A stretch of DNA of 64,000 nt. It comes from Candidatus Bathyarchaeota archaeon (GTDB lineage: Archaea > Thermoproteota > CALKCG01 > B24). The stretch lies in NCBI GenBank assembly GCA_018396755.1, contig JAGTQM010000009.1:6775-70774 (forward strand). Direction: 5' to 3'. The notes under the pieces are model-generated. The model did not search any database, was not told the DNA's origin, and saw only the letters and a program-made list of their open reading frames with translations. A program made the position numbers and the translations under genes. Below, one piece after another: positions 2,253 to 23,194 of the stretch (position 1 is its first letter; each line of letters starts with the position of its first letter).

Positions 2253-2265
2253 ATAACAATGTTAT
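2253..2265. promoter_or_regulatory. operator copy ATAACAATGTTAT abutting the thrC ATG
   Basis: perfect consensus; BRE/TATA GAAAAAG-TTTATAT at 2227-2240; ATG at 2266. Confidence 0.85.
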
Positions 2266-3498
2266 ATGTATGCCTTAGCCCTTAAGTGTCGGAACTGTGG
2301 AGCTGAGTACGAGCTTGCACCCTTCTATGTATGTAGAAAATGTCTAGGACCACTTGAAGTTAAATACTCCTATGAGGAGCTGAAACTTGATAAGAAGGAA
2401 CTCACCAATAGGGTTAAAAGTATTTGGCGCTACAGAGAACTACTTCCAATAAATGAGCCTCTTAAATTCCTTCACATGGATGCTGGTTTCACGCCGCTTA
2501 GAAGAGCTATGCGATTGGCTGAAATCCTTGGTTTGAAGAAGCTCTATATTAAAGATGACACGGTAAATCCTACTGGATCCTTCAAAGATAGGCCAGCTTC
2601 GATAGCAGTATGCAAATCTATCGAGTTTGAGTTTAAAGCCGTGGGATGCGCTTCAACCGGTAATCTAGCGGCTGCAACAGCCTCCTATGCTGCTAAAGCC
2701 GGTATTCCATGTTATGTGTTTATCCCATCGGATTTAGAAATGGGGAAGATCCTTCAGATAGCTTCCTACAACCCTGTAGTTATTGCAGTTAAAGACACAT
2801 ACGACATTGTCAATAGATTAGCTACACAGATTTCAGAGCTACATAACATAGCGGTGGTTAACGTAAACTTAAGACCGTATTACGTAGAGGGTTCTAAAAC
2901 ACCGGCTTTTGAAGTCTGTGAGCAACTTGAGTGGACTACGCCGGACTATTTCATAATACCTATGGGTAGCGGTGCCCTTTTATGTGCAATAAACAGAGGA
3001 TTAAAAGAAATGGAAGTGTTAGACTTAATGAGGAATGACGTAAAGCTAGTTGGTGTTCAACCTGAAGGGTGTTCGCCCATAGTATCTGCCTTTAAAAAAG
3101 GAATGGATGACATAGTACCTATTGAAAAACCGAACACCATCGTTAAAAGTTTAGCTATAGGTGATCCTGCAGATGGAGCATATGCATTGAAAGCTTTAAG
3201 GGAAAGCGGAGGGTTCGCCGAAGCCGTTAACGATGAAGAGACTTTAGATGGTATGAGACTTTTAGCAAAAACTGAGGGTATTTTAACAGAGCCAGCAGGT
3301 GGGGTAGCAATAGCTTCTCTTAAAAAGCTTGTAGAGGATGGAAGTATACTTCCTAGTGAAACGGTCGTATGTTATATTACAGGTAGTGGTTTGAAAACAT
3401 TGGAAGTTTTAGAAAGAGGAATCAAACCTATAATTGTAGAGCCCGACTTAAATAGTATACTCGAATTATTGGGAGGGGGGAAGTATGGTGGTGGTTAA
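2266..3498 (+). CDS. thrC: threonine synthase-like PLP enzyme
   Basis: N-terminal CxxC..CxxC, NPTGSFKDR, ASTGN, PMGSG, EPAGG, ITGSGLK. Confidence 0.85.
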   Translation: MYALALKCRNCGAEYELAPFYVCRKCLGPLEVKYSYEELKLDKKELTNRVKSIWRYRELLPINEPLKFLHMDAGFTPLRRAMRLAEILGLKKLYIKDDTVNPTGSFKDRPASIAVCKSIEFEFKAVGCASTGNLAAATASYAAKAGIPCYVFIPSDLEMGKILQIASYNPVVIAVKDTYDIVNRLATQISELHNIAVVNVNLRPYYVEGSKTPAFEVCEQLEWTTPDYFIIPMGSGALLCAINRGLKEMEVLDLMRNDVKLVGVQPEGCSPIVSAFKKGMDDIVPIEKPNTIVKSLAIGDPADGAYALKALRESGGFAEAVNDEETLDGMRLLAKTEGILTEPAGGVAIASLKKLVEDGSILPSETVVCYITGSGLKTLEVLERGIKPIIVEPDLNSILELLGGGKYGGG

Positions 3499-3760
3499 AG
3501 TTTTCATATCATCTACTTTACTGGAAGATGCTTCTAGTAAAAAGTTAAGTTTAGATGTTGAAACAGTTAATGATGTTCTGACGAGGCTTCTGGAAATAGT
3601 TGGAGATAAGTTCAGGGGTAAAATATATGAGGGGGAAGACCTAAGCCCTCGTATTGTTATATTGGTGAATAACAGAAATGTTAGATTTATGAATGGACTT
3701 AATACAAAGGTTAACGACGGTGACGTCATTGCACTTCTCCCAGCTATCGCAGGCGGCTAA
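3485..3760 (+). CDS. MoaD/ThiS-family ubiquitin-like sulfur carrier (SAMP)
   Basis: ILVNNRNV...LPAIAGG with C-terminal diglycine; overlaps the thrC stop. Confidence 0.9.
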   Translation: MVVVKVFISSTLLEDASSKKLSLDVETVNDVLTRLLEIVGDKFRGKIYEGEDLSPRIVILVNNRNVRFMNGLNTKVNDGDVIALLPAIAGG

Positions 3761-4001: not shown

Positions 4002-4247
4002 CTATCTCCTTCTCTTGTTTTTAACTAACATCATTACTATTGCCATAACTGCTATGCTACTAGGTAGTATTAGCGGTGTAATAAAATGTGCTCGCTCTTC
4101 TTTACCACTCGAGGAGGGTTTTAGAACTGGTCTTGTATCAGTCCCATTTCGAATTGTACATACATCGCATCCATTTACATAGTGTATGAGAATCGGAGTG
4201 GCGATAAGTATTGTTGCCACAACTGTTACAATCTCTCTAAATTTCAC
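4002..4247 (-). CDS. small membrane-anchored CxxC protein
   Basis: N-terminal hydrophobic segment, CDVC, C-terminal TM helix with basic tail; own TATA and operator upstream. Confidence 0.65.
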   Translation of the reverse strand: MKFREIVTVVATILIATPILIHYVNGCDVCTIRNGTDTRPVLKPSSSGKEERAHFITPLILPSSIAVMAIVMMLVKNKRRR

Positions 4248-4271: not shown

Positions 4272-4284
4272 ATGACATTGTTAT
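4272..4284. promoter_or_regulatory. operator copy ATGACATTGTTAT upstream of the small CxxC gene
   Basis: 1 mismatch; overlaps minus-strand TATA at ~4282-4289. Confidence 0.75.
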
Positions 4285-4500: not shown

Positions 4501-5727
4501 ATGAAGTTGCTAAAGCTACGTCTTCCTAACTTTGAAGTACATTCTGAACAGAAGTTGATGAGCTTGTGGAATGGGATTCTAGTGGAGTATGATGGAGGAG
4601 CCTTCACCACAAACTATATTTCGAAACTAATTTCCAACATTAAATCTGGACTTAAAGAAGCTAATGTAGAGGCAAAGATAGTTCAAAGCGATTCTAAGTT
4701 ATTTATCGAAACGACTCAAATAAAAGAAGCGTTAAGTATTACTCAACGGGTTTTTGGTGTAACTCGCACGATGCCTTACATACGTACAGAGCTGAGAAGA
4801 GTACACGATACTCTACCGTCAGTATCGGAGAGGTTTTTAAAGCAAGGGTTTTTTCCTATGGTTAAAGTTAGATCTATAGATTCCAAGAGTATATCCATGC
4901 AAGAGATGGCTCAAGCTTTCGATTTGGGAAAGACCCCTAATCTAAAAGATGAATCTATGAAAACCATCGATGTAAGTGTAGAAGTGGTGGGAGATGTATG
5001 CCATTTATATGCAGATCATTTAGCTGTAGTTGGACCAGGGGGCTTACCCATAGGAGCCGGGGATAGAGTGATCTGTTTAGTTTCAGGGGGAATAGATTCA
5101 CCTGTGGCAACTTGGATGATGATGAGGAGGGGATGCCCTGTTGCCATTTTATTCGCATACTTCCCCATGGGAGGAGATGAATCCGACCTTAAACGCTTCA
5201 TAAGTGTCGTTAGAGAACTGCGCAAATGGCATATTGGGGAGGAAATGCAAGTCTACGTATACAAACACGATCAAAACCTCGTTGTTTTTAGGAAGACGGC
5301 ATTAAGGTTTACATGTATCCTATGCAGACGGATGATGTATAGAGTTGCAAATGAATTCGCCAACATTGTAAAAGCAAAAGCAATAGTCACAGGTGAAAAC
5401 CTCGCTCAAGTGGCTTCGCAGACGTTACAGAATTTAAGCGTCATAAATCAAGCGTCTAAACTACCAGTTTTAAGACCTTTAATAGGCCTTGATAAGGAGG
5501 AAATCGTTAAAATAGCTAAGCATATAGGTACTTATGAAGCCAGCTGTATAAGGGTTTCTTCAGGTTGCACACCCATCAAGGGCTGTTGGGCTAGACCCCC
5601 AAAGCCAGTTACATATGCCTCACTCGACACAATCATTAAGATAGAATCTAGTCTAAATATTAGAGAACTGCTTGAACGTAGCGTAGATAGTTTAAGAAAG
5701 TTTCCAGATGAATGGTTTACTTCTTAA
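4501..5727 (+). CDS. thiI: ThiI/TtuI-family sulfurtransferase, divergent paralog 1
   Basis: GPGGLP, SGGIDSPVA PP-loop, CILCRR, GENLAQVASQT, RPLIGLDK; start uncertain. Confidence 0.85.
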   Translation: MKLLKLRLPNFEVHSEQKLMSLWNGILVEYDGGAFTTNYISKLISNIKSGLKEANVEAKIVQSDSKLFIETTQIKEALSITQRVFGVTRTMPYIRTELRRVHDTLPSVSERFLKQGFFPMVKVRSIDSKSISMQEMAQAFDLGKTPNLKDESMKTIDVSVEVVGDVCHLYADHLAVVGPGGLPIGAGDRVICLVSGGIDSPVATWMMMRRGCPVAILFAYFPMGGDESDLKRFISVVRELRKWHIGEEMQVYVYKHDQNLVVFRKTALRFTCILCRRMMYRVANEFANIVKAKAIVTGENLAQVASQTLQNLSVINQASKLPVLRPLIGLDKEEIVKIAKHIGTYEASCIRVSSGCTPIKGCWARPPKPVTYASLDTIIKIESSLNIRELLERSVDSLRKFPDEWFTS

Positions 5728-8153: not shown

Positions 8154-8166
8154 ATAACAATGTAAT
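8154..8166. promoter_or_regulatory. operator copy ATAACAATGTAAT upstream of the ABC operon
   Basis: 1 mismatch; downstream of minus-strand TATA at 8174-8181. Confidence 0.8.
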
Positions 8167-8208: not shown

Positions 8209-8576
8209 CCTCCTCAATAAGCCAAGTACCTCAATTTAAAATAAACTCTTAAAGTAAAACTAAGTCATATATGATCAAAAGCTAGCTCTTAATGTTCTAA
8301 GAGGTGTAGAGAGAGTTAAGTTAACAATGGCACATTCTTAAATCTAAACTGTCGCCTGGTGGGAATTTGATCAAAGCGAAGTCTAGAGCCTCATAGACGT
8401 TAAAATTTATTGCTTTATGGCTTAATTTTGACTTTCCATACACCATGCTTCTATCTTCGTCTCAAATATGTGGAGTTTATCTTCGAAAAGCCTCGCTTTA
8501 AAATGCTACGATAAGATGAAAAAGCGAAGCTAGCAATTAAACTACAAAGCTAAATTTATATAACCCCGTCATAGTT

Positions 8577-8589: not shown

Positions 8590-9645
8590 ATGTCTATGAG
8601 TATTCTCTTTAAACCTGAGGAGTATTATCGTCGGCAGATAGCTTTGCCGGAAATGGGCTTTAAAGGGCAGAAGAACTTAAGAAGTTCCAGTGTCGCCATC
8701 GTTGGTGTAGGAGGCCTTGGGTCGGTTTCAGCTTTATACTTGGCATTAGCTGGTGTTGGAAGAATCAAGCTTATAGACCAAGATGTCGTAGAATTTAGCA
8801 ATCTCCATAGGCAGATACTATACACTATTTACGACTGCAGACTACCGAAGGCTGAGGTTGCCGCTAAGAGGATCAGAGATGTAAATCCTGAGGTTGAGGT
8901 TGAACCGATTCCAGAAAATCTAAATGAGTTGAACGCTGAACGTCTTCTCAGAAACGTAGACTGCGTTGTGGACGGTTTAGATAACATGAAGACTAGATAT
9001 TTGATAAACAGAGTATGCGTTAAACACAGAATACCATATGTTTTCGGAGGTGCTATAGGACTTGAGGGGAATGTCTCCGTATTTAAACCTCCTGAGACTC
9101 CATGCCTCGAATGCATTCTACCGGGGCTGAATGATGCTCATCTACCAACTTGTGAGACGAGGGGCGTTATAGGAGCGACTCCGGGTATAGTAGGAGCCAT
9201 ACAGACTATGGAAACCATAAAATTACTCATCGGTGTAGGAGGGGGGCTTTTAGGAAAACTTTTAGTCTGCGACTTCAAAACGATGAGCTTCGACATCTTA
9301 AAACTTGGCAAGAACCCTGGATGTATGGTCTGCGGAGAAGGCATTCAAAAGCCCGTCAAATACGAAGAAAAATTGATTTGGCTTTGTGGAAGCGATACTG
9401 TAAATGTAAATCCATCCAAACCAATGAACATAGACTTGGTTAAAGCACACGATATTTTAAGCAACAATTTTAAGATACTAGCTAAATCGTCACTCGCTCT
9501 TACGATATCCCTCCCAAAAGGAGTTGAGGCAACAATCTTCAGAAACGGTAGAATGCTCATAAGGAATGTTAAAGATGAGCAAACAGCCGTTAAAACCTAT
9601 GAAATTGTCATTCAGTATATAACTCAGTCCAGTTCTCCCGTATAA
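8590..9645 (+). CDS. moeB: MoeB/ThiF E1-like enzyme (UbaA-like) with C-terminal TBP-like extension
   Basis: YYRRQI, GVGGLG, SNLHRQ, DGLDN, PCLEC, TCETRGV, CMVC. Confidence 0.9.
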   Translation: MSMSILFKPEEYYRRQIALPEMGFKGQKNLRSSSVAIVGVGGLGSVSALYLALAGVGRIKLIDQDVVEFSNLHRQILYTIYDCRLPKAEVAAKRIRDVNPEVEVEPIPENLNELNAERLLRNVDCVVDGLDNMKTRYLINRVCVKHRIPYVFGGAIGLEGNVSVFKPPETPCLECILPGLNDAHLPTCETRGVIGATPGIVGAIQTMETIKLLIGVGGGLLGKLLVCDFKTMSFDILKLGKNPGCMVCGEGIQKPVKYEEKLIWLCGSDTVNVNPSKPMNIDLVKAHDILSNNFKILAKSSLALTISLPKGVEATIFRNGRMLIRNVKDEQTAVKTYEIVIQYITQSSSPV

Positions 9646-10550: not shown

Positions 10551-10563
10551 ATAACGACGTTAT
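10551..10563. promoter_or_regulatory. operator copy ATAACGACGTTAT upstream of the serA-like gene
   Basis: perfect consensus, extended palindrome TTATAAC-GAC-GTTATAA; TATA at 10567-10574. Confidence 0.85.
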
Positions 10564-10609: not shown

Positions 10610-10622
10610 ATAACACTGTTAT
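10610..10622. promoter_or_regulatory. operator copy ATAACACTGTTAT overlapping the cysteine synthase ATG
   Basis: perfect consensus; last two bases are the AT of ATG 10621. Confidence 0.85.
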
Positions 10623-11940
10623 GACAAACATTCAGACTACATACGTAGGTGTGAACGAAGTAAAACAGCCAGTGAACGTCGATTTAAGAGAAGCAATTCC
10701 TGTATATAGGCGGATTCTTAATGAGAAAAGCGTAAGAGAACTTATTGTAGTTGAAAAGACGACTATGGTTGTTTTAAGAGGACATGGGGTTTTAGAAGCT
10801 CTGAGATTGCTTTCAGCTGATAAAGTTCCAGTGTTTCAAGTTGATTCGTCTAAAGTTAAAGTGAAAAGTCTGCAACCAGGTTTAAGACCTATAACGTTAG
10901 AGGCTGTCATTAAAGCTGGAGTTGAAGGCCCAAGGCTTCCGTATAAGAGCTTCGACGTTCAGATTGAAGAGGAGATTCCCAGCATAGAAGTAGATTTAAA
11001 TGAGTTGAATGTTTGGAAGAGGGTAGGAGGAAGACGACTTAGAGTATATGATAGTACTATGGAGTTACTCTATGAAGACTGGCCGACGCCTCTAGTTAAA
11101 CTACGGTTCTTCTCCTCAGAGGATAGGAGCGTTTGGGCTAAGCTTGAAGGAGCTAATCCATACAGTAACAGCGTTAAAGATAGAATAGGGTGGTCTATGA
11201 TTATGAGTGCTCTTGAAGAGGGGAAACTGGGCGATATATTGTATGAAGCTACTTCAACTAATACTGGAATAGCCATAACAGCTATAGCAAACCTCCTAGG
11301 GAGGAAGACAAGACTGTTTATACCAAAAACCATTCAGAAGGCTAGCGACGTTTTTCTTAAGGTTCTGGGAGCAGATGTTGTAAGAGTACCTGTAGGTTTG
11401 ACCGTGGAAGCTATAGAAGAAGTTGATGCCAAGTCTAAATCCGAGGGGGCTACTCACTTAAATCAGTTTGAGAATGATGCGAATTTCAAAGTACATCTGA
11501 AGTATACAGCTAAGGAGATAGATGAGCAACTTGAAAGCCGTGGGCTTAAACCAGACTGCATCGTAGGAGGCTTAGGAACCTCAGGACATATGAGCGCTAT
11601 ATCCATTTACTTCAAAAGTAAATACGGAGGTTCTGTGAAAATAGTAGGCGTTCAACCTGCTCCCAATGAGGTGATTCCTGGAATACGTAGAATTGAAACA
11701 GGTATGAAATGGATTCACTGGGTAGATTTTGACCAAGTTATAGACGTTAAAAGGAATGAGGCTATAGAAGGTGCTTTAACCGTCGCTAGAAAAGAGGGGC
11801 TCTTAATAGGCTTAAGTGCTGGAGCAGTTTTCCACGCATTCACTAAGATCGCTGAAGACGGGGGGGTTTATGTCTTGGTATTTCCAGACACTGGCTACAA
11901 ATATGTAGAACAATTTGAAGAATACTTTCATAGTGTGTAA
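10621..11940 (+). CDS. cysteine synthase/O-phosphoserine sulfhydrylase with N-terminal ParB/SerK-like domain
   Basis: C-terminal PTPLV, SVKDR, ATSTNTG, GLGTSGH, GLSAGA; N-terminal ~130 aa ParB/Srx-like (VVLRGHG, VPV). Confidence 0.85.
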   Translation: MTNIQTTYVGVNEVKQPVNVDLREAIPVYRRILNEKSVRELIVVEKTTMVVLRGHGVLEALRLLSADKVPVFQVDSSKVKVKSLQPGLRPITLEAVIKAGVEGPRLPYKSFDVQIEEEIPSIEVDLNELNVWKRVGGRRLRVYDSTMELLYEDWPTPLVKLRFFSSEDRSVWAKLEGANPYSNSVKDRIGWSMIMSALEEGKLGDILYEATSTNTGIAITAIANLLGRKTRLFIPKTIQKASDVFLKVLGADVVRVPVGLTVEAIEEVDAKSKSEGATHLNQFENDANFKVHLKYTAKEIDEQLESRGLKPDCIVGGLGTSGHMSAISIYFKSKYGGSVKIVGVQPAPNEVIPGIRRIETGMKWIHWVDFDQVIDVKRNEAIEGALTVARKEGLLIGLSAGAVFHAFTKIAEDGGVYVLVFPDTGYKYVEQFEEYFHSV

Positions 11941-11949
11941 CAATGTTAA
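11937..11949. promoter_or_regulatory. operator-like copy GTAACAATGTTAA at the cysteine synthase/JAMM junction
   Basis: intact TAAC-AAT-GTTA core spanning the TAA ending at 11940 and ATG 11943. Confidence 0.5.
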
Positions 11950-12383
11950 AGATCGCTAAAGCCGTTTTTAAACAGTTGGTAGAAGCGTGTAAAGAGGAGT
12001 TCCCCAGAGAAGCTTGTGGGCTTATAGCTGGAGTCAAAGGGAATGAGGATTCATTCGCTATAAAGATCTATCCTTTAAGAAACATAGCTAAATCGTCATT
12101 CACCTATGAGACAGATGCGGAAGAAGTGTATAATGCTTTCATCAACATAGAAGAAACTGGATTAAGTATCCTAGGTGTATATCATAGCCATCCATTTAGC
12201 CAAGCTGAGCCATCTGAATTGGATAGGAGAAACGCTTTCTACCCAGGCATGATACACGTGATCGTTTCACTCATAGGAGATGTTGCTGACGTTAAAGCCT
12301 ACTTATGGAGCGGGGAGGAGTTCACCGAATACCCCATCTCTATAGAGGAAGAACAGGCGAAGCTAGTACAAAGTTTTATATAA
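11943..12383 (+). CDS. JAMM/MPN+ metalloprotease (Mec/desampylase-like)
   Basis: EACG, YHSHP....PSELD. Confidence 0.9.
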   Translation: MLKIAKAVFKQLVEACKEEFPREACGLIAGVKGNEDSFAIKIYPLRNIAKSSFTYETDAEEVYNAFINIEETGLSILGVYHSHPFSQAEPSELDRRNAFYPGMIHVIVSLIGDVADVKAYLWSGEEFTEYPISIEEEQAKLVQSFI

Positions 12384-12392
12384 CTGAGTAAT
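12380..12392. promoter_or_regulatory. operator copy ATAACTGAGTAAT upstream of the HTH regulator (possible autoregulation)
   Basis: directly follows TATA TTTTATATA (12374-12382); spacer deviates from RNY. Confidence 0.6.
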
Positions 12393-12412
12393 ATTAATAT
12401 TTTTGAAGTCTT

Positions 12413-12748
12413 ATGCATTTAAAACCTCCATGTGAATTATCCGTTAAATTTATCCTACCAGCCATAAGACTTCTCATAGCTAAAAAACTCATAGAAAAAT
12501 ACAACTTCACTCAAACTTCAGCTGCTAAAGCTCTAGGTACTACACAGGCTGCTATAAGCCATTATATGCACTCGAAACGCGGATGGAGGCTTGCTGAGAG
12601 GTTGATGAAGATGGAGGATGTTAGAGAGTTTATAGAAAAATCTGCAGAGAAAATCGCTACGTCTGAAATACATAACGTAGATGTTTTAGACGTATGTCAA
12701 CTTTGCAAAATAACTCAGAAGTATGTAAGTGAATTTGAAAAATCATAA
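12413..12748 (+). CDS. HTH transcriptional regulator, COG2522-like (ThiR DNA-binding-domain family), with Cys motifs
   Basis: PPCE..LPAIR..TQ..AAKALGTTQAAISHY..KRG; C-terminal CQLC. Confidence 0.8.
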   Translation: MHLKPPCELSVKFILPAIRLLIAKKLIEKYNFTQTSAAKALGTTQAAISHYMHSKRGWRLAERLMKMEDVREFIEKSAEKIATSEIHNVDVLDVCQLCKITQKYVSEFEKS

Positions 12749-12763: not shown

Positions 12764-13162
12764 TTAAAAAACTACGAGTGATATAGCTCTCATTGGACAT
12801 GCATCTACGCATAAACCGCAAGCTACACATTTATCTTCATCAAAGATTATAGAGTAATCACCGGACATTTTAATCACATCAACTGGACAAAGAGACAGAC
12901 ATTCACCACAATGTATGCATCTATCTAAATCAACAGATATTGTCCTTTTAATTACGATTTCAACCCCTTTACTTTTAAAAGCTTCAATTACATTCTCTGC
13001 AAAAACATCTGGTATTTCTACGAGCATTTCCCCACCTTTCTCGTGAATAGAAGCCTTTAAAATGTTTAATTTAACCCCTTTCTCAAGTATTACAGTTGAA
13101 GTTATGGGTTCATTCATAAGTCCGCCGTGGAACCTTAATAATACTTTAACCATATCTATCAC
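12764..13162 (-). CDS. NIL-domain ferredoxin (partner of the DUF39 homocysteine enzyme)
   Basis: LNILKA NIL motif plus two CxxCxxCxxxCP clusters. Confidence 0.85.
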   Translation of the reverse strand: MIDMVKVLLRFHGGLMNEPITSTVILEKGVKLNILKASIHEKGGEMLVEIPDVFAENVIEAFKSKGVEIVIKRTISVDLDRCIHCGECLSLCPVDVIKMSGDYSIIFDEDKCVACGLCVDACPMRAISLVVF

Positions 13163-13164
13163 CT

Positions 13165-14346
13165 TTAAACAATCCTTTTCATAATAGCTTTTTCTTTCAT
13201 AGGTTTAAATACCGAGCCTCTAGGCAAGTTTTCAACAGGCTTAGATAAGTAGAAGAACCCCTCTTCAATCCATTTCTTCAAGGTTTCAGCTACTTCTATA
13301 GCTCCTTTAAGACTTGATAATGAGCTGACTTTCACAGTTTTCCCCAGTATTTCTACTTTCCCAGATTTAAGTTCTCTATAAGAGACTTCTCTTAGAATTG
13401 GTCTAGTCCTTCTTGGAATACCATAATCTAATATTTTAACGGTTATCTGCTCATCTGTTACTGCAGCGCTTTTAGCGATTTTTAAGTTCAGTATAGGCAT
13501 TGGTATACCTAGACCGACATAAATAGATGTCCCATAACGGGTAATGGCAGCCCCTCTAACAAATTTGGGATCCATATCCATACAGTTTCCTTTGACCATT
13601 AAAGTTCCCATTTGATTCCCCGGATCATGTTGAGTACCTTCACCTATGACATAGCCTTTTGCTCCCCCTAGAAATATCCTAGTTCCAATACCTATCGTTT
13701 CGTAGTCAGGGTCGTTCATTAATGGGTTTAATTCACCAGCTCCTGAGAAAGTAGCATTACCGTAATGCGGTAATAGTTTACCCATGTAAGTATATATTGT
13801 GACATCCCTGCTATTAGTTGCGCAAACGTACTTCTGGTAAGCATTTCTAAAATTCAACATGTAAAATTGATTTAAATCATACTTAGTCAATGTAGTTTCA
13901 AGCCTAGTCCTAGGGTAACAGTCTGTTCCATAAGCCGTAGCCTTCAACTCAACTTCTTTTCCGCTTATCAAGTCTTCTATAACGTGGCCTCCCCCGTATT
14001 CGAATGGTTTGACTTCAGACATCTGAGTAGCACCTATGTATAGGTCCACTGCTGCTCCCGGGTGGCAAACAGAGACGTCATTAATCCATGCTTTATCTAT
14101 CTTAATAGGTGGGTCTGAATGACCTAAATTTATCACAGCACCAGAAGAGCACATAGCCCCAAAGGTTCCCGTTGTTACAACGTCAACTTCTTTGGCAACT
14201 GCTTCAACACCTTTATCTTTGACTAGGCGTTTAAATTCATCAGCCCTTAGAACTACGACATCTCCCTTTCTAATCTTCTCATTTATTTCTTCGTATGTCC
14301 TTATGGGTTTCTCCAACTCATAATTACTTGTCAAGGTTTTCACCAA
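13165..14346 (-). CDS. L-aspartate semialdehyde sulfurtransferase/homocysteine biosynthesis protein (DUF39, no CBS domains)
   Basis: VDVVTTGTFGAMCSSG, YGGGHVIEDL, YGTDCYPR, NDPDYETIGIGTRIFLGG; adjacent NIL-ferredoxin. Confidence 0.9.
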   Translation of the reverse strand: MVKTLTSNYELEKPIRTYEEINEKIRKGDVVVLRADEFKRLVKDKGVEAVAKEVDVVTTGTFGAMCSSGAVINLGHSDPPIKIDKAWINDVSVCHPGAAVDLYIGATQMSEVKPFEYGGGHVIEDLISGKEVELKATAYGTDCYPRTRLETTLTKYDLNQFYMLNFRNAYQKYVCATNSRDVTIYTYMGKLLPHYGNATFSGAGELNPLMNDPDYETIGIGTRIFLGGAKGYVIGEGTQHDPGNQMGTLMVKGNCMDMDPKFVRGAAITRYGTSIYVGLGIPMPILNLKIAKSAAVTDEQITVKILDYGIPRRTRPILREVSYRELKSGKVEILGKTVKVSSLSSLKGAIEVAETLKKWIEEGFFYLSKPVENLPRGSVFKPMKEKAIMKRIV

Positions 14347-14357
14347 AACAGTGTTAT
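14345..14357. promoter_or_regulatory. operator copy AAAACAGTGTTAT at the DUF39 start
   Basis: 1 mismatch; abuts the start codon, TATA-like TTTAAATA about 20 bp upstream. Confidence 0.8.
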
Positions 14358-15222: not shown

Positions 15223-16095
15223 TCATGGTTTATCTTTTCTAAAAACAGTTTCGTTAAGGCTTCCGGATTTATATCCGTAAAGATCTAAAGTCACGTATAT
15301 ATATCCTAGACTTCTAAGTTTACTCCAAATACTATTCATGACATTCTCATCGAAAAAGACTTTTCTCTCATCTCTACCGACTTCGATTCTAGCGATATAG
15401 CCATGGTCTCTAACTCGAACTTGTCTAACTCCAGTAAGTTGTCTTATATAAGTTTCTGCTTCCGAAATTCTTCTAAGTCTTTCGTAGGTTACTTCTACAC
15501 CATATGGAATTCTTGAAGCTAAACAAGCCATAGAAGGCTTATCTGCCGTAGGAAGCCCTACGATTTTCGAAATCAACCGTACATCACTTTTAGTGAGACC
15601 TACTTCAGCTAGCGGACTTCTCACTCCAAATTCCTTTAAAGCTTTGAGACCAGGTCTAAAATCTCGATGGTCGTCAGCATTAGAGCCGTCAACTATCACT
15701 TTTAAACCCTCTTCTTCGGCTATTTTACTCAACACCTTTAACAGAGACCTTTTGCAGTAGTAGCATCTATCTGGAGGATTCTTAACAAACTCGCCATCGC
15801 TTAATTCATCGACTTTAACTATTCTATGTTTAATCCCTATGAAACGTGCAATTTTAATAGCGTCTTCAAGTTCACCCGGTGGAAGAGTTAGCGAATCCGC
15901 TGTAACGGCTAAACTCTTATCATCTAAAGCTTTGTAAGTAACATATGCCACAAGAGTGCTATCAACTCCACCAGAGAAAGCGACCAACACGCTATTCTTA
16001 TCATTGAACCAATTTATGAGCTTCTCCAATAGAGCTTGAGCCTTTAAGACGGATTCATTTTTACATTCTAAGTGTTTAGGCTTTCCAGTCATCAC
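15223..16095 (-). CDS. larE: LarE-family ATP-dependent sulfur insertase
   Basis: AFSGGVDS, RCYYCK, DFRPG, ACLASRIPYG, VRVRDH, YVTLDL. Confidence 0.9.
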   Translation of the reverse strand: MMTGKPKHLECKNESVLKAQALLEKLINWFNDKNSVLVAFSGGVDSTLVAYVTYKALDDKSLAVTADSLTLPPGELEDAIKIARFIGIKHRIVKVDELSDGEFVKNPPDRCYYCKRSLLKVLSKIAEEEGLKVIVDGSNADDHRDFRPGLKALKEFGVRSPLAEVGLTKSDVRLISKIVGLPTADKPSMACLASRIPYGVEVTYERLRRISEAETYIRQLTGVRQVRVRDHGYIARIEVGRDERKVFFDENVMNSIWSKLRSLGYIYVTLDLYGYKSGSLNETVFRKDKP

Positions 16096-16105
16096 ATATC
16101 AAATT

Positions 16106-16118
16106 ATAACGCTGTTTT
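16106..16118. promoter_or_regulatory. operator copy ATAACGCTGTTTT upstream of larE-fdhD
   Basis: 1 mismatch; overlaps TATA TTTATAAA at ~16116-16123. Confidence 0.75.
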
Positions 16119-16183: not shown

Positions 16184-17308
16184 ATGGTTTCAGTATTCAT
16201 GAAGCCTAAATTGGTCCTTATTGGAGGCTTTCTAGGAAGTGGAAAGACAACACTACTACTCAGACTAGGCGAGGCGCTGACGAATGAGCATGGAAAACGA
16301 GTGGTCATGATAACGAATGACCAGGGAGAAGTTTTAGTGGATAGTGTTATAGCTAAAGACTACGGTTTTGAAACAGCGGAGATCATCAGAGGATGCTTCT
16401 GTTGCAACTTTCAAATTTTCATTAAACACGCTCAGAAGATTTTAGAGGAGCTAAGGCCAGATGTTATTCTCGCAGAACCAGTTGGAAGCTGTAGCGGTCT
16501 GATGCCAACACTCTACAGGCCTATACAGGAATTCTACTCTGGTGAATTCAAACTCGCTCCGTTAATAATCATGGTAGATGCATCTAGACTTCTTAAACTT
16601 CACCAGGAGATAAACCTTTTAGATGCTGGAGACCCTATAGCCTATCTCATAGCGTCGCAGATAAAAGAGGGGGAGATAATGTGTATAAATAAAGTAGACT
16701 TGGTGGACGATTCAACCATTATGGACACCCTTAGTCTTTTGAGAAGAATGAGACCTGAAGCTGAGTTTGTACTGACGTCAGCTAAATTCAACGTTGGAGT
16801 TGATAAAGTAGTAGACGTGATTCTTAAAGGTGTTTCTAGAAGACTACCATACCCTGATGTAGATATGATCAAGTATACAGAGGCTGAGCTTGAACTCGCA
16901 TGGTTCGATGGACTTTACGAAGTTAAATCGGAGGGAAGTTTTAACCCGATGGATTTCATTAAAGAAGTTTTAGAAGACGTTGTTGGGCAAATAGCAAGTC
17001 ATAATGGATTTATCGCCCATGTAAAAGCATATCTGAGAACACCCAATAGGGCATTTAAAGCCAGCGTCACCTCAACAGATTCCAACGTTGATATAGGTGG
17101 GCCTGAAAGCGTTGAACACACCAACTCTGGGGTATTGTTGGTAAACGCTAGAGTCAAACTCAGCCCTGAGAAACTGAGCGAAATAGTAAACATCGCATTA
17201 GAAAAAAAGGCTTTAAAGTACAATGTTACTCTTCCCAAGATTAGAGCTGAGGCTTACAGACCTAAACCTCCTAAGCCTCAGTTCTATATCCCATATTCTA
17301 GAGGCTAG
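16184..17308 (+). CDS. CobW/G3E-family metallochaperone GTPase
   Basis: GGFLGSGKTT, GCFCC, AEPVGSC, NKVD, HVKA. Confidence 0.85.
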   Translation: MVSVFMKPKLVLIGGFLGSGKTTLLLRLGEALTNEHGKRVVMITNDQGEVLVDSVIAKDYGFETAEIIRGCFCCNFQIFIKHAQKILEELRPDVILAEPVGSCSGLMPTLYRPIQEFYSGEFKLAPLIIMVDASRLLKLHQEINLLDAGDPIAYLIASQIKEGEIMCINKVDLVDDSTIMDTLSLLRRMRPEAEFVLTSAKFNVGVDKVVDVILKGVSRRLPYPDVDMIKYTEAELELAWFDGLYEVKSEGSFNPMDFIKEVLEDVVGQIASHNGFIAHVKAYLRTPNRAFKASVTSTDSNVDIGGPESVEHTNSGVLLVNARVKLSPEKLSEIVNIALEKKALKYNVTLPKIRAEAYRPKPPKPQFYIPYSRG

Positions 17309-17341: not shown

Positions 17342-17354
17342 ATAACAGTGTTAA
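17342..17354. promoter_or_regulatory. operator copy ATAACAGTGTTAA upstream of the second SAMP
   Basis: 1 mismatch; overlaps TATA CTTAAATA at 17337-17344. Confidence 0.8.
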
Positions 17355-17369: not shown

Positions 17370-17639
17370 GTGATGAGAGTTCTATTTAAGTTCTACGGAA
17401 ACCTCGTGAACTACTTTGGAGAGAGAGCAAGCATAGAACTCAACGAGGGAGTTACGGTTCAAGAGGCACTTATGAAGCTTAAACTCATAGATGGAACTCC
17501 AGCATATGCAAGTATTTTCATAAACACTCACCTACAAATGCTTGTAGTGTTCGTATCAGGCAAACATGCGAACTTAAACACTAAGTTGAGCGGGGAAAGC
17601 GTAGAAGTTACGGTTCTTCCACCAATAATGGGTGGTTAA
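17370..17639 (+). CDS. second MoaD/ThiS-family sulfur carrier
   Basis: beta-grasp-like pattern ending LPPIMGG. Confidence 0.8.
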   Translation: MMRVLFKFYGNLVNYFGERASIELNEGVTVQEALMKLKLIDGTPAYASIFINTHLQMLVVFVSGKHANLNTKLSGESVEVTVLPPIMGG

Positions 17640-17689: not shown

Positions 17690-17702
17690 ATAACGACGTT
17701 AT
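17690..17702. promoter_or_regulatory. operator copy ATAACGACGTTAT upstream of nadA
   Basis: perfect consensus, between TATA and RBS. Confidence 0.85.
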
Positions 17703-17719: not shown

Positions 17720-18646
17720 ATGGAAGTCTCTCGGCTTCAGAGAAAGGTCATTCAGTTAAAGGAGAAAGAAAAAGCATTAATTTTAGCTCATAACTATCAG
17801 CGTCCGGAAATACAGGAAATAGCTGATTTTGTAGGTGACTCGCTACAACTGTGTTTCGCAGCAATTAGAGCTGAGGATGCTAAATACATAGTTTTTTGTG
17901 GTGTCGATTTCATGGCGGAAACGGCGTCTATCTTAAACCCAGATAAGCCAGTTGTAATCCCGGATGTTGAAGCCAAATGTCCCATGGTTGCTCAGCTACC
18001 AGCAAAAAAGGTAGTAGAGGCAAAAAAGAAGTATCCAGATGCTGAAGTCATGCTGTATATAAATACGTTGGCTGAAGCTAAAGCAGAGGCGGATGTAATA
18101 TGCACTTCTTCAAATGCTTTTAGAATCGCTAGCAAGCTTGATTCTACTAAGGTTCTCTTTGGCCCAGATCGGAACTTAGCATGGTATACCGCTAAACGTT
18201 GCTCCAATAAGGAAATCATTCCAATCCCAGAAAATGGCTATTGCATCGTACATAAACTGTTTCAAGTAGAAGATATTCTTCTTCTTAAGAAGAGCCATCC
18301 GGACGCAGAAGTATTGGTGCATCCCGAGTGCGACCCCGAAGTTCAGCAAATAGCAGACTTCATCGGAAGCACAGAGCAAATGCGTAGAAGATGTTTCGAA
18401 TCCCATTCAAAGAAATTCATTATAACGACTGAAATAGGTCTCATTGATCGCTTGAAAAGAGAACTTCCTGGAAAAGAGTATATTCCAGCGTTTGAAGGAG
18501 CTATATGTTATAATATGAAACGTCATACGCTTGAAAAAGTCTACCATGCTCTTGAGTCGAAGAAAACAGTTGTTAAAGTTCCGGAGGACATTGCTAAGAA
18601 AGCTAGATTGGCAATAGAAAGGATGATGGGGCTTTCTAAGCAGTAG
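17720..18646 (+). CDS. nadA: quinolinate synthase A
   Basis: LAHNYQ, GDSL, FCGVDFMAE, CPM, YCIVH, HPEC, CYNMK. Confidence 0.95.
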   Translation: MEVSRLQRKVIQLKEKEKALILAHNYQRPEIQEIADFVGDSLQLCFAAIRAEDAKYIVFCGVDFMAETASILNPDKPVVIPDVEAKCPMVAQLPAKKVVEAKKKYPDAEVMLYINTLAEAKAEADVICTSSNAFRIASKLDSTKVLFGPDRNLAWYTAKRCSNKEIIPIPENGYCIVHKLFQVEDILLLKKSHPDAEVLVHPECDPEVQQIADFIGSTEQMRRRCFESHSKKFIITTEIGLIDRLKRELPGKEYIPAFEGAICYNMKRHTLEKVYHALESKKTVVKVPEDIAKKARLAIERMMGLSKQ

Positions 18647-18701: not shown

Positions 18702-18714
18702 ATAACAATGTTAT
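18702..18714. promoter_or_regulatory. operator copy ATAACAATGTTAT upstream of iscS-iscU-copA
   Basis: perfect consensus; overlaps TATA TTTAAATA at 18697-18704. Confidence 0.85.
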
Positions 18715-18738: not shown

Positions 18739-19968
18739 ATGGGTAGTGATTTAAATAGAGATGTGGAAGGACTTCTAAAGGCTCACGGTGTTTCTGAGAG
18801 AGAGGTTTACTTAGACTCTGAAAACTCGGGATTAATTTTCCCTGAGGCGTTGAAAGCTATGGTTGATTCATACGAGGAGGCTGCTAGGGGCCATCCAGCT
18901 ATAACGCATAAGCTTGGATGGGAGTCCTATGAGAAGCTCTATGAATCGACGTTGAAAATCGCTCAAGCTTTAAACTGCAACTCTGAAGAAATTACATATA
19001 CGCATAATGGAACTGAGGCGAACAATCTCGCAATCTTAGGTTTAGCCGAAGCCAGTAAAAGTAGAAGAAAGATCCTCGTCTCAAGCATAGAACATTTAAG
19101 TGTAATTTTTGCGGCTGAACATCTCCAGAAGTTTGGTTTTAAAGTGGTGAAGGTTCCAGTCGACGGAGAAGGTTTTGTTGATCTAGATTTCATATCTAGA
19201 AACGTGGATAAAGACACACTTTTAGTAAGCGTCGCGTTGGTCAATCATGAAATAGGGACCATTCAAGATGTTAAAGCTATAATCGATGTTGTGAAGGGGC
19301 ATGATGAGAAAATTGTAGTACACACAGATGCTTGTGATGCTTTGGGAAGAGTAAAACTGGATTTGAAGAGGCTTAATTTAGATTTAGCGTCGTTTAGTAG
19401 TCACAAGATTTACGGTCCGAAGGGTGTAGGAGCACTTTACATTAAAGAAGGTGTTAACGTTAGTCCTATAATCTACGGGCAGTTAAGCACTCAACATTTA
19501 TGGCCGAGTTTAGAGAACATACCAGCTATAGTGGGCTTCTCTAAAGCCGTTGAATTGATGCATTTAAACTTTGAATCTTACAATAGCCGTATTACGAGGT
19601 TGAGGGATAAACTTATCGACGGTTTGCTAGACATAGAATACACGGTTCTCAATGGTCCTAAAGGCTATAAACGGTCACCCGACAATGTTAATATAAGTTT
19701 CCTGTTTTGCGAGGGGGAGGCTTTAACCGTGGAGTTAAGTTTAAAAGGCATATATGTCTCTAGCGGAAGCGCTTGTACCAGCCGTATTTTAGAACCTAGC
19801 CACGTTCTTCAAGCAATAGGTAGACGGCATGAGGAAGCCCATGGAAGTATTCTGATGAAGATAACGCCATTCCACTCGGATGAGGATGTGGATTACGTGA
19901 TTGGAAGCTTTCCAGATGCTATTAGAAGAATTAGGTCTATGAGCCCTATGAAGCCTGGGGGTGGTTAA
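18739..19968 (+). CDS. iscS: cysteine desulfurase, IscS/NifS-type
   Basis: GTEANN, IEH, SSHKIYGPKG, SSGSACTS, PSHVL. Confidence 0.9.
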   Translation: MGSDLNRDVEGLLKAHGVSEREVYLDSENSGLIFPEALKAMVDSYEEAARGHPAITHKLGWESYEKLYESTLKIAQALNCNSEEITYTHNGTEANNLAILGLAEASKSRRKILVSSIEHLSVIFAAEHLQKFGFKVVKVPVDGEGFVDLDFISRNVDKDTLLVSVALVNHEIGTIQDVKAIIDVVKGHDEKIVVHTDACDALGRVKLDLKRLNLDLASFSSHKIYGPKGVGALYIKEGVNVSPIIYGQLSTQHLWPSLENIPAIVGFSKAVELMHLNFESYNSRITRLRDKLIDGLLDIEYTVLNGPKGYKRSPDNVNISFLFCEGEALTVELSLKGIYVSSGSACTSRILEPSHVLQAIGRRHEEAHGSILMKITPFHSDEDVDYVIGSFPDAIRRIRSMSPMKPGGG

Positions 19969-20455
19969 ACTGTCCAGCCGTATACCGTTACCTTATAGTT
20001 TTAAAGTCATAGAGCTTTTCAGAAACCCGAAAAATTTGGGCAAGATGGATGACGCTACCGTATGGGCTTTAGCTGGAAGTATAGCTTGCGGAGATATGAT
20101 AGCTATGTACCTTAAGATAGATGAAGAAACGCAGAGTATTCTGAAAGCCTCATTTGAGAGTTACGGATGTGCTGCCAACATAGCAGCAGCCAGCATACTA
20201 ACGGAAATGGTTAGAGGGAAAACGCTTGAAGAAGCTTGGCGCATCTCGTGGAGAGACGTATCAGATGCATTGGGTGGACTACCTAAGGTTAAATACCACT
20301 GCGGTATTTTAGCTGTCGGCTCTCTAAGACGTGCTATAAGAGCGTATTTTCAAGACAAACTTAAGCCTAAATGGCTTCCTGAGAATCTTACAGCAGAAGA
20401 GAGGCATGCGTTAGAGGAAGAAGAGCTTGCTGAGAGGTTCTCTAGGAAGTCTTAA
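19961..20455 (+). CDS. iscU: Fe-S scaffold IscU/NifU-N
   Basis: FRNPKNLG, ACGD, GCAA, LGGLP..KYHC. Confidence 0.9.
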   Translation: MVKLSSRIPLPYSFKVIELFRNPKNLGKMDDATVWALAGSIACGDMIAMYLKIDEETQSILKASFESYGCAANIAAASILTEMVRGKTLEEAWRISWRDVSDALGGLPKVKYHCGILAVGSLRRAIRAYFQDKLKPKWLPENLTAEERHALEEEELAERFSRKS

Positions 20456-20478
20456 TGTTTTTCAGCTGTGGATTTGAT

Positions 20479-22587
20479 ATGGTTGAAAGAGTTAAATTCT
20501 CTATAAAAGGAATGCACTGTGAGAATTGCGCTAAAACCATTGAAAAAGCTCTTATAAAGGAAAGAGGGGTAGTCTCAGCTCATGTTAGTTTCCCTTTAGA
20601 AGAGGCAATTATTGAATATGATTCAATGCATGTTAGTATTGAAGAGATTAAGAGGATAATTAAAGAAGCTGGTTACGAAGCTTTAGAAGAAAAAGAGAAG
20701 AGTGACGATATTAGAAGTGGCTGGTGGAGGTTTTGGCTCGGAGTCGCCTTAACAATTCCTACTTGGATTATTGCAAACTTCTTCTATGAGTCTAAGTGGA
20801 ATCTCCTGCTTTTCAGCTTATCTACACCAGTCCAAATAGTCCTTGGCTTACCTTTCTATAGAGGAGCTTATTTTAGCCTAAAGCAGAAAACAGCTGATCT
20901 AAACGTTTTAGTTTCTCTAAGCACTTTGACCGCTTATTTTTACTCTGTTGCTACTACTTTATTCATCTCAGGCCCCGTGTTTTACGATGCTTCAACAACC
21001 GTTTTAACGACTATTACCTTAGGCATGCTACTGGAAAAGATCTCTCAAGGGAAAGTAGGTGAAGCTATTAAGAAATTGATGAAGCTTAAGGCTAAAACTG
21101 CTAAGGTTTTGAGGAATGGTGAAGAAGTAGAAGTATCGCCTGAGCATATTCAGAAGGGAGATATCGTAGTCGTTAGACCGGGTGAGATGATTTCAACAGA
21201 TGGAGTTATCATAGAGGGGGAGGCAACGATTGATGAATCGATGATTACTGGAGAATCTATGCCTGTGGATAAGAAAGAGGGGGATTATGTTTTCGGAGGA
21301 ACTATAAATAGATACGGCTTCTTCAAGTTTAAAGCAACTAAAGTAGGGGAAGAAACAGTGCTAGCTCAAATAATTAGGCTTGTTGAAGAAGCTCAAACTT
21401 CTAAGGCACAGATTCAAAGAGTAGCTGATAGAGTTTTAAGCTTGTTTATACCTTCAGTTGTCACCATCGCTATTTTAACATTCACCGTCTGGTATTTTCT
21501 CTTGAGAAGTAGCTTTCTATTTGCTTTAACAGCTTTTGTCTCAGTTTTAGTCATTGCATGCCCATGTGCTCTAGGAATTGCTACTCCAACTGCTATAATG
21601 GTTGGAATTGGCAAAGGGGCTGAAATGGGTATTCTGGTTAAAGGAGGACAGTATTTGGAGAAGGCTCGAGAATTGGATACTATCGTTTTTGATAAAACCG
21701 GAACTTTGACTAAAGGTGAACCGGAGGTGACGGATGTGATTGGAAACGTTTTACAGTTGGCGGCCAGTTTAGCGAAGAATACAACACATCCGTTAGACAT
21801 AGCGATCGTTAAAGAGGCGGAGAAAAGAGGGATAAAGCTGTTGGATGTTCAAGACTTTAAAATAATTCCCGGAGGAGGGATTATGGGAAGGATAGGGGGG
21901 AGGAGCGTTCTACTGGGAAGCCGGAGAGTGGTTAAAAGCGACTTAGGTATTGAATTAGAGGAGGATGGAAAAACTGTGATGTTGATTTCAGTAGATGGGG
22001 AGATAAAGGGGGCTATTGCCGTAGCTGATACTTTAAGGAAATACTCGAAAGATGTTGTTAACGTTTTAAAGAAGAAGGGAATGGACGTTTATATGATTAC
22101 AGGGGACAGCCGAAGAACTGCTGGAGCTATCGCTAGAAAACTTGGAATTGAAAACGTTCTAGCTGAGGTTTTACCTCAAGATAAGGAGAAAACTATTAGG
22201 GCACTTCAGAAGAGTGGTAGAGTGGTAGGGGCAGTAGGTGATGGAATCAATGATGCGCCAATGCTTGCTACTGCAGACATTGGCATCGCTATGGGGGCTG
22301 GGACAGATATAGCGAAGGAGACTGGTGGAATAGTTCTAGTTAAAGATGATTTAAGAGACGTAGTAAGAGCAATTGAACTTTCAAGAGCAACGTTTTCTAA
22401 GATAAGACAGAACCTATTTCTAGCATTCATCTACAACGTTTTAGCAATTCCTGTAGCTTCTGGCCTCTTCTATCAATGGCTTGGGTTTTTACTTAAACCT
22501 GAGATTTGTGCTTTAGCTATGATAATTTCCGATGTCTCAGTCATAGGCAATTCTCTTCTACTTAAGAGATGGAAATGTAACATTTGA
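20479..22587 (+). CDS. copA: P1B-type copper-translocating ATPase
   Basis: GMHCENC HMA domain, TGES, CPC, DKTGT, GDGINDAP; ORF track starts at 20455. Confidence 0.9.
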   Translation: MVERVKFSIKGMHCENCAKTIEKALIKERGVVSAHVSFPLEEAIIEYDSMHVSIEEIKRIIKEAGYEALEEKEKSDDIRSGWWRFWLGVALTIPTWIIANFFYESKWNLLLFSLSTPVQIVLGLPFYRGAYFSLKQKTADLNVLVSLSTLTAYFYSVATTLFISGPVFYDASTTVLTTITLGMLLEKISQGKVGEAIKKLMKLKAKTAKVLRNGEEVEVSPEHIQKGDIVVVRPGEMISTDGVIIEGEATIDESMITGESMPVDKKEGDYVFGGTINRYGFFKFKATKVGEETVLAQIIRLVEEAQTSKAQIQRVADRVLSLFIPSVVTIAILTFTVWYFLLRSSFLFALTAFVSVLVIACPCALGIATPTAIMVGIGKGAEMGILVKGGQYLEKARELDTIVFDKTGTLTKGEPEVTDVIGNVLQLAASLAKNTTHPLDIAIVKEAEKRGIKLLDVQDFKIIPGGGIMGRIGGRSVLLGSRRVVKSDLGIELEEDGKTVMLISVDGEIKGAIAVADTLRKYSKDVVNVLKKKGMDVYMITGDSRRTAGAIARKLGIENVLAEVLPQDKEKTIRALQKSGRVVGAVGDGINDAPMLATADIGIAMGAGTDIAKETGGIVLVKDDLRDVVRAIELSRATFSKIRQNLFLAFIYNVLAIPVASGLFYQWLGFLLKPEICALAMIISDVSVIGNSLLLKRWKCNI

Positions 22588-22957: not shown

Positions 22958-23194
22958 TTGGTGATGCTTTTAGGTACTATTACTATTAAGGTTGATGAGT
23001 ATTTAAAAAAGAGAATGAGCAAGGTTAAGATTAACTGGTCTGAGTACATTAGGGAGGCTATTAAACGCAGAGTTGAGCTTGAAGAGAGAAAGGGGGCTGC
23101 TGAAAAGCTTTTAGAGAGTTTAAAGACGAGGAGACATGTTGTACCTTCTGGGTTTATAAATGAAACTATTCGGGAGATGAGGGAAGCTCGTTGA
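22958..23194 (+). CDS. RHH-type antitoxin (VapB-like)
   Basis: TITIKVD..LK...INWSEYIREAI; overlaps a PIN gene. Confidence 0.75.
   Translation: MVMLLGTITIKVDEYLKKRMSKVKINWSEYIREAIKRRVELEERKGAAEKLLESLKTRRHVVPSGFINETIREMREAR

Follow-up and report, generated by a model that had tools for sequence, protein, structure and literature searches.

Archaeal regulation of sulfur assimilation, of cysteine (Cys) and homocysteine synthesis and of iron-sulfur (Fe-S) cluster assembly is largely unknown, and the locus described here raises the question of which factor might control such genes in an uncultured archaeon. The window, that is, the whole stretch of 64,000 nucleotides (nt) of Candidatus Bathyarchaeota DNA that was analysed, is part of a contig of a 1.98-Mb genome (89% complete) and contains most of a sulfur-gene block of about 20 kb, which we call the island. 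Inside the island are a gene for a 111-aa protein with a helix-turn-helix (HTH) and many copies of a short palindrome. The best explanation, and in our judgement the probable one, is that this protein, a stand-alone member of a large archaeal family, is a local autoregulated repressor of a sulfur-trafficking regulon, the Cys site of which may, more tentatively, sense a cofactor. The gene and the two elements of its promoter are given below in window coordinates; RNY stands for purine, any base, pyrimidine.

12413..12748, + strand: stand-alone PCE-HTH-CxxC regulator gene; helices predicted at residues 6-28, 34-41, 45-53, 58-65, 68-83 and 94-109, HTH at about 34-53
12374..12383, + strand: TATA-like T/A-rich box of the regulator promoter, recognised by eye; overlaps the JAB stop codon
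12380..12392, no strand: the regulator's own putative operator ATAACTGAGTAAT; right half GTAAT degenerate, spacer not RNY; arrangement conserved in orthologous loci

The open reading frame (ORF) translates into a protein that begins with MHLKPPCE, ends in ...VCQLCKITQKYVSEFEKS and contains exactly three cysteines, C7 (in PPCE) and C95 and C98 (in CQLC, within VCQLCK). Its start codon lies 29 nt past the stop of an upstream JAB/MPN gene, and the gene is convergent with that of a NIL-ferredoxin. Pfam HTH_3 (PF01381) covers residues 24-53 as a marginal pass (24.4 bits, cut-off 23), with weaker Pfam matches to Cro and ParB-HTH and nothing meaningful in NCBIfam. The AlphaFold2 model of the regulator, based on a 134-row alignment, has six helices (pLDDT 80.7, pTM 0.73); C7 opens the first of them, and C95/C98 stand where the sixth begins. 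A profile search of PDB sequences gave weak HTH matches alone (best E 0.025, Noc/ParB), Foldseek on the model gave nothing at E<=1e-3, and VIA-align wide returned the uninformative best matches of Bcl-2-like helical bundles (Z 6.1) and the DeoR DNA-binding domain (Z 4.8). As modelled, the overall fold is shared by no solved structure. A homodimer prediction gave no answer (score 0.02, mark 0.42) and carries no weight either way.

The first-pass annotation of this DNA had described a 111-aa HTH protein with PPCE, CQLC and three Cys, preceded by its own TATA and a degenerate copy of the palindrome whose spacer breaks RNY, and had called it the only HTH regulator in the island. All of this held. 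The operator ATAACTGAGTAAT has one mismatch to ATAAC-N3-GTTAT and the spacer TGA, overlaps both the TATA-like stretch and the JAB stop codon, and ends 20 nt before the regulator ATG. Furthermore, none of the other 22 ORFs scanned (465-22587) matched an HTH family, and no HTH was seen by eye in the small gap ORFs of the island, among which just 1333-1530, 4002-4247 and 17370-17639 were scanned with Pfam.

To describe the palindrome, we scanned the 64-kb window for ATAAC-N3-GTTAT with at most one mismatch, using 100 shuffles as the null. The scan gave 20 matches against 3.12 expected (standard deviation 1.35), a number reached in 0 of 100 shuffles; 12 of the 20 were intergenic, all between 2253 and 18714, and the remaining eight lay inside ORFs. 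The whole genome has 10 exact copies, and six of them are on this contig within about 20 kb, the sixth immediately ahead of the window, flanked by a ParB_N-like gene and a SufS-like desulfurase gene (the latter read from its first residues). Off this contig, one exact copy precedes a second NadA, one precedes a hemerythrin/DUF438 gene, and two are intragenic. When the 90-nt windows upstream of ORFs were considered genome-wide, 23 of 1,730 had a site with at most one mismatch, and 14 of these 23 belong to the island. The spacers of the five exact window copies (AAT, GAC, ACT, GAC, AAT) are all RNY, as are 80 of the 84 spacers at exact sites across 80 related loci; RNY is therefore a true part of the motif, which becomes the 13-bp ATAAC-RNY-GTTAT.

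The sites at 2253, 10551, 10610, 12380, 16106, 17690 and 18702 overlap a TATA-like box or sit between the box and the start codon. Archaeal repressors that bind at the TATA box or just downstream of it block the recruitment of TBP/TFB or of the polymerase, and this placement thus fits repression. The gene, its family, the operator, the regulon and the association of gene and operator come from computation, while repression is what we infer from the operator position.

The association was examined in two sets of genomes. The same-order set contained 17 genomes, 16 with an orthologue and one (G012) without, and a class-level search gave the same 17. From the public genomes, 184 relatives were found, and 79 loci were used for the upstream count, one further locus being without an HTH ORF. 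The best palindrome match within 90 nt of the family-gene start was scored. In the same order, a site with at most one mismatch lies upstream of the orthologue in 13 of 16 genomes, with two mismatches in the other three, and it is kept despite different neighbours (PP-loop ATPase, SufS, Thi4). In the 79 public loci, which are mostly from Bathyarchaeia with some from Hadarchaeota, Promethearchaeota, Njordarchaeota and Methylarchaceae and whose neighbourhoods differ widely, the best match had no mismatch in 44, one in 27, two in three and three or more in five. Thus 71/79 family genes have a palindrome with at most one mismatch upstream, mostly 14-20 nt from the start, compared with the background of 23/1,730 in this genome. 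A perfect site also stands directly before the homologue of G019, a genome of another family of the phylum, and before the gene of a ThiN fusion in G038. Exact motifs numbered 95 against 23 for a reversed-pattern control in the 17 order genomes, and 48 against 63 in 24 other genomes of the phylum; the enrichment of the motif is limited to where close orthologues occur.

The first-pass annotation had proposed the protein as the cognate, autoregulated factor of the palindrome, and had suggested following gene and motif across genomes, since genomes that keep the motif without the gene would speak against it. We found the two present together in the order and lost together in the sole order genome that lacks the gene, G012 (80% complete), which has 0 exact motifs genome-wide; this is one genome. 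At the syntenic SufS locus, G012 has neither gene nor site, and in its sister G009 the gene is divergent from SufS with a perfect site shared between them. The upstream sites in the order, the public loci, G019 and G038, together with this co-loss, support the proposal, and on sequence grounds the 111-aa protein and the palindrome very probably pair as regulator and operator.

Could the palindrome be bound by another factor, with the HTH gene being one more target or an unrelated small DNA-binding protein? The degenerate site of the regulator itself would agree with this, and so would HcyBio in genus g4, which has no motif upstream although G009 has the regulator. However, the palindrome precedes family genes in 71/79 loci of very different neighbourhoods as well as in G019 and G038, gene and motif disappeared together from G012, and no other DNA-binding gene is consistently present in the island or recurs in the corresponding clusters of G013, G001 and G008. 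We consider another factor very improbable. The HcyBio upstream regions have no motif in G009 and none in G012, and are therefore uninformative for co-occurrence.

Given the pairing of regulator and palindrome, the other intergenic sites of the island can be listed with the genes that they may control; no strand is assigned to any of them.

2253..2265: exact operator; abuts the ATG of a ThrC-like pyridoxal phosphate (PLP) enzyme (2266-3498), with a ThiS-like carrier (3485-3760) next
4272..4284: operator with one mismatch; in the gap before ThiI (4501-5727), 24 nt from the small minus-strand ORF 4002-4247; target uncertain
8154..8166: operator with one mismatch; 33 nt upstream of a minus-strand FtsX/ABC/FtrD-like operon (start 8120)
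8560..8572: operator with one mismatch; 17 nt upstream of a ThiF/MoeB-type E1 gene (8590-9645)
10551..10563: exact operator; 4 nt upstream of a minus-strand 2-hydroxyacid dehydrogenase (SerA-like), just downstream of its TATA
10610..10622: exact operator; overlaps the ATG of a CysM-like PLP enzyme (10621-11940), with the JAB gene (11943-12383) next
14345..14357: operator with one mismatch; at the start of minus-strand HcyBio (13165-14346), with the NIL-ferredoxin (12764-13162) next
16106..16118: operator with one mismatch; 10 nt upstream of a minus-strand PP-loop ATPase (15223-16095; FdhD downstream) and 65 nt from a CobW-like gene (16184-17308)
17342..17354: operator with one mismatch; 15 nt upstream of an 89-aa ThiS-family ORF (17370-17639)
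17690..17702: exact operator; 17 nt upstream of NadA (17720-18646)
18702..18714: exact operator; overlaps the TATA, 24 nt upstream of a NifS-like gene (18739-19968), followed by NifU-like (19961-20455) and P-type ATPase (20455-22587) genes

The island targets form a coherent predicted regulon of sulfur mobilisation, Cys/homocysteine synthesis, thio-cofactors and Fe-S assembly. Thi4 (start 1250) is also in the island and has no site with at most one mismatch before it. The regulon is conserved in G013, G001 and G008, with the regulator gene inside the cluster each time; judged by their first residues, the ORFs next to sites in these genomes encode ThiF, SufS, Thi4, NadA, HcyBio, the CysM-like enzyme and a P-type ATPase, and Pfam confirmed a DsrE-like gene in G013 and a SepSecS-family (SepCysS-like) gene plus an Fe-S protein in G008.

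The next question is what kind of protein the regulator is. A word-based search found 57 close homologues, those with a name being called "transcriptional regulator" and coming from metagenome-assembled genomes of Bathyarchaeia, and the ESM Atlas neighbours were all archaeal with no name beyond "transcriptional regulator". An exhaustive profile search reached 1,786 clusters at 50% identity with E<=1e-3, and 802 with E<=1e-10; among the 150 best clusters listed, nearly all proteins are 71-162 aa long. The regulator has all near-invariant residues of the family (C7, E8, P16, R19, Q34, G42, Q45, S49, Y51, R56, C95 and C98; family length 100-135 aa), and a profile search of its own genome found it to be the single member there. 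Elsewhere in the phylum, the family profile (A1) aligns with residues 1-113 of 290-320-aa proteins (E 7e-31 to 1e-13), the C-terminal halves of which are Pfam ThiN (PF10120; E 1e-32 to 2e-51). These fusions came from the genome profile search alone; the word-based search for longer fused forms gave one 217-aa protein with an unrelated N-terminal extension.

The fusions have the architecture of ThiR, the archaeal HTH plus ThiN regulators of thiamine genes reportedly described by Rodionov et al. and by Hwang et al. in the Journal of Bacteriology (J Bacteriol) in 2017. The 111-aa regulator has no ThiN by Pfam; it ends at residue 111, and the next gene is the convergent NIL-ferredoxin. The sole ThiN of the genome is in a 460-aa ORF that reads by eye as ThiDN (its N-terminal half kinase-like by eye), so that a full-length ThiR is unavailable to bind the motif. 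The first-pass view of a ThiR-type HTH without its sensing domain, and its suggestion to look for a full-length ThiR elsewhere, are answered by these results: the N-terminal module matches, and the genome holds no such ThiR. By its sequence, the regulator belongs to a branch of the ThiR-type family that lacks ThiN; its regulon is different and well defined, and its operator is shared across the family. Neither the stand-alone family nor ATAAC-RNY-GTTAT came up in any paper in our literature searches, the published motifs, supplements and Cys discussion of the 2017 ThiR papers being outside this comparison.

The likeness to ThiR covers the whole length of the N-terminal module (P-C-E, HTH, CxxC). 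In addition, at least one ThiN fusion (G038) has the same palindrome before its gene, and the island of the regulator has Thi4 and ThiI. DNA binding by ThiR depends on thiamine phosphate. The regulator has no ThiN ligand domain in the protein or adjacent to it, and its predicted regulon seems to serve sulfur, Fe-S and Cys/Met metabolism at large more than the synthesis and uptake of thiamine. ThiC (read from its residues) adjoins ThiDN on contig C57, which has no exact site, the fetched stretch ending inside ThiC. Thiamine-gene sites do occur elsewhere: G013 has a site with one mismatch before Thi4 (by first residues), and G019 has a site before an operon with ThiC second (by eye).

The neighbours of the wider family were tallied by hand from 144 flanking ORFs of the 79 loci. 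A sulfur-transfer or Cys/Met gene is immediately adjacent in 29/79 loci, the genes being CysK/M-like PALP, NIL-ferredoxin, JAB, FdhD, ThiF, ThiS, ThiI, Thi4, SepCysS-like, SufS-like, ATP sulfurylase, Cys_Met_Meta_PP, PP-loop and thioredoxin/glutaredoxin. Additional loci have ThiI-like/NFACT-R_2 (five), a CDGSH Fe-S protein (three), FeoB (one) and AhpC (one), and elsewhere in the phylum, other families have NifS-NifU, YcaO-TfuA and thioredoxin-fold proteins among the neighbours. These recurrent sulfur neighbours fit a sulfur-related signal common to the family.

How such a signal might be sensed leads to the Cys residues, the conservation of which was counted over 194 family members. C7 is kept in 179, E8 in 177, C95 in 188 and C98 in 189, and position H50 varies (Q 83, H 60, Y 29). 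A C-terminal tail with C-x2-H...CxxC is found in roughly half of the members, its first Cys being present in 95/194. In members without C7 (stand-alone in five genomes, plus two ThiN fusions), the first CxxC is lost or degraded and the tail is kept; in members with C7, the first CxxC is always present, with or without the tail. Since C7 and the first CxxC are lost together and the tail is independent, they behave as one unit, and the family has two separable sites. The window regulator has just the first, consisting of three Cys and the near-invariant Glu8. The first-pass annotation had proposed that the Cys sense sulfur or Fe-S status through a ligated cluster or through persulfidation. Such a role of the site as an Fe-S or thiol sensor, to which the regulon would be suited, is a plausible hypothesis, in which our confidence is somewhat below even.

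The same repressor role could be combined with a Cys triad that is a structural metal site, for example a Zn that links the N-terminus with the last helix, and the signal could then come from a small co-repressor on the helical C-terminal half (cysteine, sulfide, S-adenosylmethionine or a thio-cofactor intermediate), from a partner protein or from the concentration of the repressor. A structural site agrees with the presence of the triad throughout the family, including ThiN fusions in which ThiN is the presumed sensor, with the zinc-ribbon appearance of the second C-x2-H...CxxC site added by about half of the members, and with the many members that have no adjacent sulfur genes. But a ligand pocket would hardly fit into 111 aa, a classical Zn site would call for a fourth invariant Cys or His, which the family does not have, and the 29/79 loci with sulfur-transfer genes recur in many unrelated contexts. 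We regard this alternative, the main rival, as somewhat unlikely.

Another possibility is that CxxC and C7 are a thiol switch, in which a disulfide, persulfide or polysulfide alters DNA affinity. SurR of Thermococcales and the bacterial persulfide sensors CstR/SqrR are parallels, the CxxC is invariant, and homologues lie beside thioredoxin-fold genes in two other lineages (G029, G036); a glutaredoxin-like gene adjoins one further homologue and AhpC another (L101, L143). However, known persulfide sensors release DNA on modification and thereby induce detoxification, while a biosynthetic regulon needs the opposite polarity, and C7 and E8 co-vary with CxxC as one unit, more like a ligand set than a redox pair. 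A thiol switch seems improbable to us.

Returning to the cofactor-sensing repressor, its working can be proposed as follows. In this organism and the order to which it belongs, the 111-aa protein would locally repress a sulfur-trafficking regulon, with a scope that would comprise cysteine desulfurases, the NifU scaffold, the ThiF/ThiS/JAB/CysM-type thiocarboxylate route, the SerA-like dehydrogenase, HcyBio with the NIL-ferredoxin, ThiI, FdhD, the PP-loop ATPase, NadA and the metal-handling CobW/P-type ATPase. The regulator, presumably as a dimer, would bind the 13-bp ATAAC-RNY-GTTAT at or just downstream of the TATA box and so block assembly of the pre-initiation complex, and binding to the weaker degenerate copy on its own TATA would give negative autoregulation. 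Tentatively, the C7/E8/C95/C98 site might hold an Fe-S cluster or a metal, the occupancy of which would report sulfur or Fe-S sufficiency. DNA would then be bound by the cofactor-loaded form, and the regulon would be derepressed once the cofactor is lost, in an IscR-type logic. A wider form of this proposal, which we think rather unlikely, is that the whole PCE-HTH-CxxC family is an archaeal cofactor-sensing class in which C7/Glu8 and CxxC hold an Fe-S cluster and its occupancy sets ATAAC-RNY-GTTAT binding; the stand-alone members would be functional counterparts of IscR/SufR in Bathyarchaeia and other anaerobic archaea, acting as master repressors of sulfur trafficking, of Cys/homocysteine synthesis and of Fe-S assembly, and ThiR would be a derived form in which a ThiN sensor joined a DNA-binding domain that already responded to Fe-S status.

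Several observations weigh against the cofactor-sensing, autoregulated repressor. The regulator's own operator, which departs from the consensus at three positions, might function weakly or not at all, and the TATA boxes as well as the repressor role were read from the letters. The family has no fourth invariant Cys or His. The triad, being family-wide and kept in ThiN fusions whose sensor is presumably ThiN, is ancestral and not a sulfur-sensing specialisation, and may be structural. The loci are phylogenetically related and some public ones are apparently the same contigs as in the order set (L068/G001 C1, L072/G013 C4), so the locus counts overstate independence. A PUA-domain gene flanks the family gene in 23/79 loci (13 of them with a DOT1/CMAS-like methyltransferase as well) with no sulfur link, the exception being L073, which also has ThiF alongside. 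Finally, the sites of G019 precede operons containing ThiC and MoaA (names from first residues); the content of the regulon therefore varies between lineages, and that of G019 leans to cofactor synthesis.

Compared with known regulators of sulfur and Fe-S metabolism, the protein resembles the bacterial Rrf2 regulator IscR as a small autoregulated repressor with operators before desulfurase and scaffold genes (18702, NifS-NifU-like) and with three Cys plus one non-Cys candidate ligand. It differs in having no Rrf2 winged helix (neither a Pfam or NCBIfam Rrf2 match nor a structural match) and in its Cys spacing, C7 ... C95-x2-C98 as opposed to the C-terminal three-Cys loop of IscR, and its cofactor is hypothetical. 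NsrR and other [4Fe-4S] regulators with three Cys and a carboxylate likewise combine three Cys with an N-terminal acidic residue, here Glu8 beside Cys7, but there is no homology and the likeness lies in the residue pattern alone. SurR of Thermococcales is likewise archaeal, regulates sulfur-responsive genes, and has a CxxC and a short palindrome with a 3-nt spacer; however, it is a winged-helix protein of the ArsR type, its CxxC is N-terminal, its half-sites are GTT-N3-AAC and not AAC-N3-GTT as here, and Pfam, PDB profile and structure searches found no sequence or fold similarity to the regulator. To Cro/C1 proteins (XRE, HTH_3), the regulator is linked by an HTH_3 match just above the cut-off, a weak Cro match and a 13-bp palindrome of the size that such dimers use, and it is set apart by a long additional helix at the N-terminus and by a helical C-terminal part that carries the Cys site.

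For Bathyarchaeia-type uncultured groups, our literature searches found no described regulon of this kind. The locus offers a concrete, testable triplet of a 111-aa protein, a 13-bp predicted operator and a defined list of targets, and this list ties together poorly understood sulfur routes: thiocarboxylate-dependent Cys/homocysteine synthesis, HcyBio/NIL-ferredoxin, Thi4, ThiI, NadA and NifS/NifU. The operator could be used to predict sulfur regulons in many archaeal metagenome-assembled genomes, and ThiR comes to be seen as a single branch within a far larger family. Should the Cys site turn out to be a sensor, it would add a new structural way of sensing Fe-S or sulfur.

Some further features of the island and its surroundings deserve description. 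The CysM-like enzyme has an extra N-terminal domain of about 150 residues (window 10621-11070) with no Pfam match. Upstream of the window, a separate 173-aa protein (L061:2421-2942 (-), equal to G000:C28:5420-5941) has a sub-threshold ParB_N match (20.2 bits against 26.3). Each of the two genes has an operator, as does a similar small ORF in G013; Pfam gave no ParB_N match for that ORF or for the CysM-like N-terminus. The ParB_N-like island proteins were considered as operator binders and rejected, there being this one sub-threshold match and no HTH in any of them.

The 89-aa ORF at 17370-17639 (+) ends in GG, belongs to the ThiS family (E 5e-6) and, with 3485-3760, makes a second sulfur-carrier gene. 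NadA has two paralogues, 17720-18646 in the window and G000:C4:53218-54141, and both have an exact operator immediately in front; next to the C4 copy, which owes its name to its first residues, are ORFs that read by eye as MoaD/MoaE-like and ThiF-like. The hemerythrin plus DUF438 protein (L062:871-1650, equal to G000:C19:9870-10652) has its exact operator, with the non-RNY spacer TCT, 6 nt before the start and is possibly a member of the regulon related to Fe-S repair or to O2/NO. Between Thi4 and the ThrC-like gene is a Cys-rich ORF of 65 aa (1333-1530, +; CxxC ... CC ... CxxxC) with no Pfam match. Directly past the P-type ATPase, the island ends in small overlapping ORFs (22958-23449, +) that look by eye like a ribbon-helix-helix antitoxin and a PIN-like toxin.

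In other genomes, the loci upstream of the HcyBio-NIL fusion gene of G012 and G009 (L144/L145) have a different palindrome, ATTAC-N5-GTAAT. The exact palindromes of G019 (L042-L049) stand before the homologue, a MoaA-like radical-SAM gene, a two-gene operon with ThiC second and a membrane protein (two tandem sites), with names taken from first residues. A subclade from public Bathyarchaeota metagenome-assembled genomes (L122, L124, L128, L132, L134, L139) is characterised by the N-terminus MDPQCE, a length of about 118 aa and ATAAG/ATAAA-N3-GTTAT before the gene. Next to its genes is one for an HTH_3-CBS protein, and in many cases a Cys_Met_Meta_PP enzyme or a CDGSH Fe-S protein is encoded there too; the two regulators may form a two-regulator module.

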